64,000 nucleotides of DNA from Escherichia coli (GCF_003334785.1 NZ_QOWV01000001.1), one strand, 5' to 3'; positions 24,676-24,941 are shown, counted from the stretch's first letter. Notes: a model not told the origin generated them from the letters alone. Numbers and translations are program-made.

Positions 24676-24861
<186 letters not shown>

Positions 24862-24941
24862 TCACGCATCTGCGTGATGAAGCTTAGTGAGGATTTTCCC
24901 CAGGCAACTGGGGAAAGACCAAACCGGGCGGCGACGATACC

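Follow-up and report, generated by a model that had tools for sequence, protein, structure and literature searches.

Selected RNA hairpins in the rpmF-plsX spacer of Escherichia coli and a dominant RNA 3' end inside plsX

The spacer between rpmF and plsX in Escherichia coli carries two hairpins that are selected RNA structures of ordinary untranslated-region type. Two independent public datasets show that RNA ends downstream of them, inside plsX, at a third and synonymously constrained hairpin, which defines the main 3' end of the yceD-rpmF mRNA; the spacer hairpins are selected but are not the terminator. This corrects an earlier reading of the spacer made from the sequence alone. The significance of hairpins 1 and 2 themselves is modest, and hairpin 3 is the more notable structure. 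We tentatively favour, at not quite an even chance, the reading that hairpins 1 and 2 are structure-selected elements which were added in the core Enterobacteriaceae to a short spacer, and that no termination takes place at them.

The window, i.e., the whole stretch of 64,000 nucleotides that was analysed, comes from the E. coli chromosome. The locus has the gene order yceD-rpmF-plsX-fabHDG and is 100% identical to genomes annotated yceD, rpmF and plsX, and window coordinates are converted to K-12 MG1655 coordinates by adding 1,122,679. According to the ORF list and the K-12 annotation, the coding sequence of rpmF (ribosomal protein L32) occupies 24688-24861 on the + strand, as do the hairpins, RNA ends, sequence tracts and plsX start codon described below at their own positions, and stops with TAA at 24859-24861. 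The spacer from the end of rpmF at 24861 to the plsX TTG at 24942 is 80 nt long. The operon yceD-rpmF-plsX-fabHDG is a textbook case of a ribosomal protein gene that is co-transcribed with lipid-synthesis genes, and its unequal outputs are usually put down to internal promoters alone. The comparative set consisted of the rpmF neighbourhoods of 80 Enterobacterales species and 10 more contigs with identical L32.

The main 3' end of the yceD-rpmF mRNA lies inside plsX

Hairpin 3 (25000-25025) has a perfect 11-bp stem, CAGUGCCUGCA/UGCAGGCACUG, and the loop GCAU. It covers plsX codons 20-28, starting 58 and ending 84 bases inside the gene, and is stronger than hairpins 1 and 2. Its predicted energy is -20.9 kcal/mol (z = -4.9). 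It was also flagged by the terminator scan. Perfect 11-bp hairpins are rare, with 2 found in the window compared to 0.27 in shuffles. The other one in the window belongs to a canonical, bidirectional-looking intrinsic terminator, TTTTTTCCCCGCGACATGCCGTGTCGCGGGGATTTTTTT (46685-46725). This terminator has T-runs on both sides of 46690-46716, in which it differs from hairpins 1 and 2. Hairpin 3 is followed by AAUUCUAAUU, a poor U-tract.

The dominant RNA 3' end, U25029 (K-12 1147708), is found 4 nt past hairpin 3, at +87 from the plsX start. In the Term-seq data it has 79,571 reads in LB 0.4, 3,078 in LB 2.0 and 8,925 in M63. RNA coverage across U25029, taken in 800-nt windows, falls from 1254 upstream to 286 downstream. 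With bicyclomycin it falls from 1231 to 534, i.e., read-through is up 1.9-fold. The entry for K-12 1147708 gives a Rho score of 1.90, which is a regional value, 'Rho termination region' Yes, and an intrinsic terminator score of 4.09.

SMRT-Cappable-seq lists a 'novel TTS' at U25029 for transcripts from both yceD promoters. In M9, 240 of the transcripts starting at K-12 1146648 end at U25029, while 55 pass through and 26 end within 50 bp downstream; for the start at 1146792 the numbers are 344, 134 and 69, respectively. The corresponding numbers in Rich are 179, 22 and 51 for 1146648, and 342, 59 and 112 for 1146792. By these counts, 63-75% of the primary yceD-rpmF transcripts stop exactly at U25029. 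Every plsX-containing primary transcript in SMRT-Cappable-seq begins at the yceD promoters. The locus is not discussed in the text of Adams et al. (2021), and likewise not in the main text of Yan et al. (2018), whose list gives the end as 'novelTTS'.

Around the yceD promoters, a promoter-like TTGACT-17-TAATAT (window 24077-24115) fits the SMRT-Cappable-seq start at K-12 1146792, which corresponds to 24113. This start is only 2 nt before the yceD ATG (24115), and its transcripts would be nearly leaderless for yceD. The 3' part of SraB (Rfam RF00077; 93 bits for the part inside the search boundary) and its terminator are located at 24000-24078, just upstream of this promoter, and the second yceD start site (K-12 1146648) falls inside sraB. 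Tanaka is reported to have defined yceD-rpmF as an operon in 1989, and the 3' boundary of that operon may correspond to hairpin 3.

Protective stem-loops, which are stable and GC-rich and lack a U-tract, are reported to set the steady-state 3' ends of Rho-dependent or processed transcripts in E. coli, and such ends can fall inside the next gene, with C>G sequence after them (Dar and Sorek, 2018; PMC6061677). Hairpin 3 is alike in all respects, being a GC-rich hairpin with a 3' end a few nt on, inside the next gene and before a C>G tract. The 100 positions in question (25030-25129) are C-rich and G-poor, with a C/G of 1.88 compared to 0.72-0.91 elsewhere in plsX, and are a candidate Rho loading region. 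Hairpin 3 fits either the protective stem-loop or the weak-intrinsic-plus-Rho class of Dar and Sorek (2018), and it differs from intrinsic terminators in combining the poor U-tract and the score of 4.09 with a Rho signature.

The 10 outer pairs of hairpin 3 are 95-100% paired in 78 sequences, where only wobble-compatible changes are found and the loop codons vary. Among the stem codons, GTG and CCT are each present in 80/80 and CAG in 78/78 Enterobacterales sequences. For the hairpin 3 stem codons the normalised synonymous-codon entropy is 0.17, while other conserved codons have 0.58-0.63 (P = 2-3e-4 in a Mann-Whitney test without phylogenetic correction). Judged by this codon comparison, synonymous-codon constraint acts on the stem in each of the 80 Enterobacterales compared. 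As the stem is conserved across 80 species, hairpin 3 is older and more widespread than hairpins 1 and 2.

Structure and conservation of the spacer hairpins

Hairpin 1 adjoins the rpmF stop codon. The sequence-only reading described a perfect palindrome with a TC loop, ATCACGCA-TC-TGCGTGAT, at 24861-24878. The palindrome is present, and its first A is the final base of the rpmF TAA. The fold has to be revised, as a 2-nt loop is sterically impossible: hairpin 1 (24861-24878) has a stem of 7 bp, formed by 24861-24867 with 24872-24878, and a 4-nt loop at 24868-24871 (predicted fold -10.1 kcal/mol, z = -4.3). The eighth 'pair' is a feature of the window allele only, and most other Escherichia sequences have G at 24868. 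This G was found in 7/8 other sampled E. coli/E. albertii spacers, which gives the loop GTCT or GTTT; the eighth, E. coli L002, likewise has GTCT.

Perfect 7-bp hairpins are common by chance (62 in the window compared to 26 ± 7 in shuffles), so hairpin 1 alone is only mildly improbable, and it is accepted as real because it is conserved. In 16 ERIC-free Enterobacteriaceae, 6/7 stem pairs are invariant and the seventh changes from U-A to U-G; the loop is free to vary. One variant among the E. coli sequences has U in place of a stem C, i.e., C-G becomes U-G and a G·U pair is kept. Since such stem changes are tolerated as G·U on the + strand only, they point to RNA of the + strand rather than to the opposite strand or to DNA. 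A DNA palindrome or transcription-factor operator is ruled out by the same consideration, because the tolerated G·U would be C·A on the other strand and because the arms are 40-125 nt apart in the ERIC-bearing genera.

The second hairpin had been described as CCCCAG-GCAA-CTGGGG at 24898-24913, with TTTT before and AAAG after it, and this core is found exactly so. Complete hairpin 2 (24882-24929, 48 nt) comprises an apical stem, the GCAA loop and an interrupted basal helix. The apical stem pairs 24894-24903 with 24908-24917 and consists of the CCCCAG/CTGGGG core, UUU/AAA and a U·G, thereby reaching 9-10 bp via TTT/AAA (predicted -15.7 kcal/mol). The basal helix pairs 24882-24892 with 24919-24929, and the complete 48-nt fold has a predicted energy of -24.7 kcal/mol (z = -4.5). 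For hairpin 1, the hairpin 2 apex and complete hairpin 2, z is about -4.3 to -4.6. Perfect 9-bp hairpins are less frequent by chance, with 14 in the window (nested counts) compared to 2 in shuffles.

The apex of hairpin 2 is 100% paired in 25 distinct sequences, and 4/7 pairs are changed on both sides. The pair variants found are CCCCAG/CUGGGG, CCCCGU/ACGGGG, CCCCGC/GCGGGG, CCCCGG/CCGGGG and CUCCGC/GCGGAG, while the apical loops are variable (GCAA, GAAA, GUAA, CUUG, UCAC and others). The basal helix is 96.7% paired in the 25 sequences, with 2 pairs changed on both sides. These pairing values are matched in 0/500 shuffles, and slid controls are 35-57% paired. An RNA-level reading of the hairpins is thus supported by covariation and by G·U-keeping substitutions, the latter on the + strand only.

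The 5' strand of the basal helix, GCUUAGUGAGG (24882-24892), is a near-invariant block. Each of its positions is at least 90% conserved in 25 Enterobacteriaceae sequences, unpaired bases included. The block contains an SD-like GAGG and a tandem UAG UGA. No second exact copy of GCUUAGUGAGG was found within the window, and a second copy of GCTTAGTGAGG was searched for and not found.

Among the 80 species compared, the two-hairpin spacer of about 80 nt is confined to core Enterobacteriaceae, including Escherichia, Citrobacter, Enterobacter, Kosakonia, Pluralibacter, Shimwellia, Siccibacter and others, and both hairpins are retained across about 25 Enterobacteriaceae genera or species. The rpmF-plsX spacer is 11-64 nt in other Enterobacterales families. 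Serratia, Cedecea and Mangrovibacter have spacers of 11-15 nt without a hairpin. In Erwinia, Pantoea, Pectobacterium, Yersinia, Photorhabdus and Proteus the spacer is 22-33 nt, often with a single small hairpin whose 3' arm reads ...GCAAGG, and in Rahnella and Rouxiella it is 48-64 nt. Two ORFs, a small one of 48 aa in the spacer with GTG at 24887 and one in antisense orientation (24884-25300), were discarded, as the spacer length shifts in 1-nt steps between species (61-81 nt).

A query with the 83-nt spacer (sensitive blastn) found exactly one place per genome in 5425 E. coli genomes, and in only 1329 of these is the spacer at least 99% identical to the window allele. REP/BIME elements, e.g., between malE and malF, are stable intercistronic hairpins which stabilise the upstream segment and so lead to unequal expression within one operon. 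The spacer resembles them in placing stable hairpins between the cistrons of one operon. However, membership is ruled out, as REPs are multi-copy, while the spacer is single-copy in the 5425 genomes and has no REP sequence. An Rfam cmscan of 24000-25400 with E up to 10 gave no family in 24860-24945, and only SraB upstream and chance-level matches were returned. No published description of hairpins 1 and 2 was found in the literature searched, and several older key papers on the operon lie outside that literature.

In ten of the compared species and a Salmonella-like lineage, the loop of hairpin 1 holds an insert of 40-125 nt, at one position and in one orientation (loci L005-L009, L016, L018, L021, L022 and L025, about 1675-1830; L084, L086 and L089, 875-945). 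The inserts are full-length or internally deleted ERIC/IRU elements. ERIC or its remnants are present in Citrobacter, Pseudocitrobacter, Pseudescherichia, Kluyvera, Superficieibacter, Phytobacter and the Salmonella-like lineage, and E. coli, E. albertii, Enterobacter and Kosakonia have no ERIC in the loop. This pattern may reflect either one ancient insertion followed by repeated loss or an insertion hot spot. At full length, the insert matches a repeat family of E. coli, about 125 bp long, which occupies a median of 11 places per genome in unannotated DNA; it fits ERIC, a 127-bp MITE with terminal inverted repeats and TA ends. The stem of hairpin 1 is not part of the ERIC repeat. In the ERIC-bearing relatives this stem closes the ERIC hairpin, and the architecture of hairpin 2 is retained. 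Hairpin 1 accepts any loop yet retains its stem, from which we infer a generic structural role and not a specific ligand.

According to what PMC2229807 and PMC3184786 relate of De Gregorio (2005), ERIC/IRU elements that are co-transcribed between genes modulate mRNA stability in Yersinia. The arrangement in the relatives is similar, with ERIC on the transcribed strand in the hairpin 1 loop, where it forms a long hairpin that has the hairpin 1 stem as its closing helix. E. coli differs in that it has no ERIC here, merely the 7-bp closing stem and a 4-nt loop, and hairpin 1 of E. coli, being only 18 nt and single-copy, fails as an ERIC/IRU MITE itself. Hairpin 1 might still be a landing pad or footprint of ERIC, with the spacer carried along as a by-product of history with little function. 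The occurrence of ERIC or its remnants at the same position and orientation in the hairpin 1 loop of several genera agrees with this. However, the stem is invariant with or without ERIC and lies outside the repeat, the E. coli spacer is single-copy, hairpin 2 shows compensatory evolution, and nearby synonymous divergence is ample, all of which makes such a history quite improbable as the explanation.

Possible roles of the spacer hairpins

It had been noted from the sequence that neither hairpin has a canonical U-tract. This is borne out by the sequences that come next, GAAGCUUAG for hairpin 1 and AAAGACCAAACC for hairpin 2, and at neither hairpin did the promoter/terminator scan report a promoter-like or terminator-like site. 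Mapping of 3' ends across 24860-24940 had been proposed as a check. In the published tables this gives one end, C24920 (K-12 1147599), and the coverage step is found inside plsX instead. The C24920 end is minor: it appears on the M63 sheet only (Adams et al., 2021), has about 1168 normalised reads, near the table minimum, and is classed as 'orphan'. It lies 3 nt 3' of the hairpin 2 apical stem, at -22 from the plsX start. At hairpin 2, Term-seq gave no 3' end in LB 0.4 or LB 2.0. At hairpin 1, no RNA 3' end was found in any Term-seq condition (Adams et al., 2021) or in SMRT-Cappable-seq, and the latter has neither a termination site (11475xx, 11476xx) nor a TSS in the spacer (Yan et al., 2018).

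These results bear on the first proposal, that RNA polymerase terminates at hairpin 1 and/or 2 and thus produces an rpmF-only transcript. The two hairpins resemble intrinsic terminators in having GC-rich stems and 4-nt loops between genes of very different expression, and one M63 Term-seq end does lie past hairpin 2. On the other hand, they lack a U-tract (about 7-8 nt), reproducible 3' ends in vivo and a called termination site; moreover, the hairpin 3 end exceeds the hairpin 2 end 7.6-fold in M63 and is the sole one of the two called in LB. Termination in the spacer is therefore a most improbable reading. The suggested weak attenuator that uncouples L32 from plsX-fab survives as a concept but has to be moved, as the spacer has no termination site and the dominant end is U25029. 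The suggestion of a stability determinant finds weak direct support for hairpin 2, in the near-threshold M63 end, and none for hairpin 1, which has no end. Compared with the protective stem-loops of Dar and Sorek (2018), hairpins 1 and 2 are alike in anatomy, as stable hairpins that lack a U-tract, but the mapped end of hairpin 2 is threshold-level and conditional and hairpin 1 is without one.

As most transcripts pass hairpins 1 and 2 and end at U25029, both hairpins belong to the 3' UTR (168 nt) of the main L32 mRNA. In the minority mRNA that reads through into plsX-fab, they are part of the intercistronic leader. Most likely, hairpins 1 and 2 serve as passive 3'-UTR/intercistronic structure, i.e., as a backup exonuclease block and as a spacer before a weak UUG. 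Hairpin 2 would be a second-line block to 3'-to-5' exonucleases, so that RNAs from which hairpin 3 has been lost, or which are cleaved between hairpins, would be trimmed back to C24920 with the rpmF frame intact. Hairpin 1 adjoins the stop codon and would have to be melted by every terminating ribosome. Together, the two hairpins might form a rigid spacer which keeps the heavy ribosome traffic on rpmF away from the weak, SD-poor and partly structured UUG of plsX. If plsX is rarely translated, early plsX RNA would be bare, allowing hairpin 3 to fold and Rho to act, which could account for the fourfold RNA step. The net effect would be that shared promoters give much L32 and little PlsX/Fab.

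The protective part of this role may be marginal for hairpin 2, as its end is near-threshold, is found in 1/3 conditions and is absent from SMRT-Cappable-seq. It also counts against a backup role that hairpin 3 already protects, including in families without hairpins 1 and 2. Further, the invariance of GCUUAGUGAGG, as seen in the sequences compared, exceeds the needs of a passive helix and speaks against our best explanation. So do the 12 nt that separate the basal helix from the UUG and the opening energy of the plsX start, which is close to that of rpmF (see below).

The near-invariant block, with its conserved unpaired bases, would be expected if the basal helix and internal loops of hairpin 2 were a specific recognition site (for a protein, RNase III or E, or L32/YceD feedback), or if 24862-25029 were a functional 3'-UTR-derived RNA of 168 nt. 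In line with the latter, the RNA with its 3' end at 25029 is highly abundant (79,571 reads). In addition, the yceD-rpmF spacer has a hairpin, UCCCCG-UUGGAU-CGGGGA (24644-24661), whose make-up resembles the hairpin 2 apex, so that rpmF is bracketed by two similar C4/G4 hairpins. A Term-seq 3' end is found at 24669 (K-12 1147348), with 2036 reads in LB 0.4 and 1168 in M63. Even so, no Rfam match is obtained with E up to 10, the apical loops are variable, and helices of 4, 2, 2 and 10 bp with internal loops between them make a poor RNase III substrate. We consider recognition of this kind doubtful at best.

The plsX start codon, a UUG at 24942-24944 in the K-12 annotation, is without a strong Shine-Dalgarno sequence upstream. 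TTG is found at this position in 80/80 Enterobacterales loci (L001-L080), which is unusually well conserved for a non-ATG start. A less well supported hairpin is predicted at 24943-24972, which includes the start codon and codons 2-10 (-12.1 kcal/mol, z -3.0). Across 78 sequences, 83.9% of its cells are paired, a value that is confounded by coding constraint. In the predicted structure, the UUG region pairs with codons 9-11, around an internal ATG that was formerly annotated as the start. Synonymous variation is reduced at plsX codons 4, 5, 8 and 9. An in-frame UGA overlaps the start (UUGA), and it looks coincidental, as its frame is not conserved across spacer lengths. Opening the initiation region is predicted to cost 8.5 kcal/mol for plsX, compared to 3.4-4.9 kcal/mol for fabH, fabD and fabG.

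The primary role of the spacer could thus be translational, with the hairpins insulating or tuning plsX initiation and the 24920 end being incidental. The spacer would block re-initiation or scanning by ribosomes that terminate on rpmF, and it would bury the G-rich stretch upstream of the UUG. Several observations are in keeping with this. A hairpin is absent from spacers of 11-15 nt, which makes coupling possible there; spacers of 22-64 nt contain one with AAGG in its 3' arm, and at about 80 nt hairpins 1 and 2 are present. Hairpin 1 always begins at the stop codon, and the UUG is invariant, predicted to be paired and relatively costly to open. However, the last 12 nt before the UUG, where the hairpin 2 basal helix has ended, are unpaired in the best fold, and occlusion of the ribosome binding site would therefore be indirect. 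The predicted opening energy of rpmF, 7.8 kcal/mol, is also barely below that of plsX, yet rpmF is highly translated. A mainly translational role is accordingly somewhat unlikely in our assessment.

Intercistronic hairpins that sequester a Shine-Dalgarno sequence can control translational coupling. The single hairpin in the spacers of Erwiniaceae, Pectobacteriaceae and Yersiniaceae has the AAGG of plsX in its 3' arm and resembles such systems. The equivalent G-rich stretch of E. coli is covered by the hairpin 2 basal helix but is 13-16 nt from the UUG, beyond normal Shine-Dalgarno reach.

Besides the passive role that we prefer, the whole 170-nt block might be a translation-sensing attenuator, made up of hairpin 1, hairpin 2 in its long form, the hairpin at the start codon, and hairpin 3 together with the C-rich tract behind it, which sets the ratio of L32 to membrane-lipid enzymes. 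The upstream hairpins would throttle initiation at the plsX UUG, and only transcripts with a closely following ribosome would melt hairpin 3, escape Rho and enter plsX-fabHDG. Hairpin 3 would be the ancient part of this device, and hairpins 1 and 2 a later refinement in Enterobacteriaceae. We regard this as unlikely; if true, translational capacity would directly gate the dosage of fatty-acid and phospholipid genes.

The yceD-rpmF-plsX-fabHDG operon is suited to testing translation-dependent polarity in an essential operon. With the main RNA 3' end inside plsX, deletions or recoding of the plsX 5' region can alter the dosage of fabHDG in cis. Complementation in trans was only partial for a recent plsX(Δ1-248) allele, which might be tied to hairpin 3.
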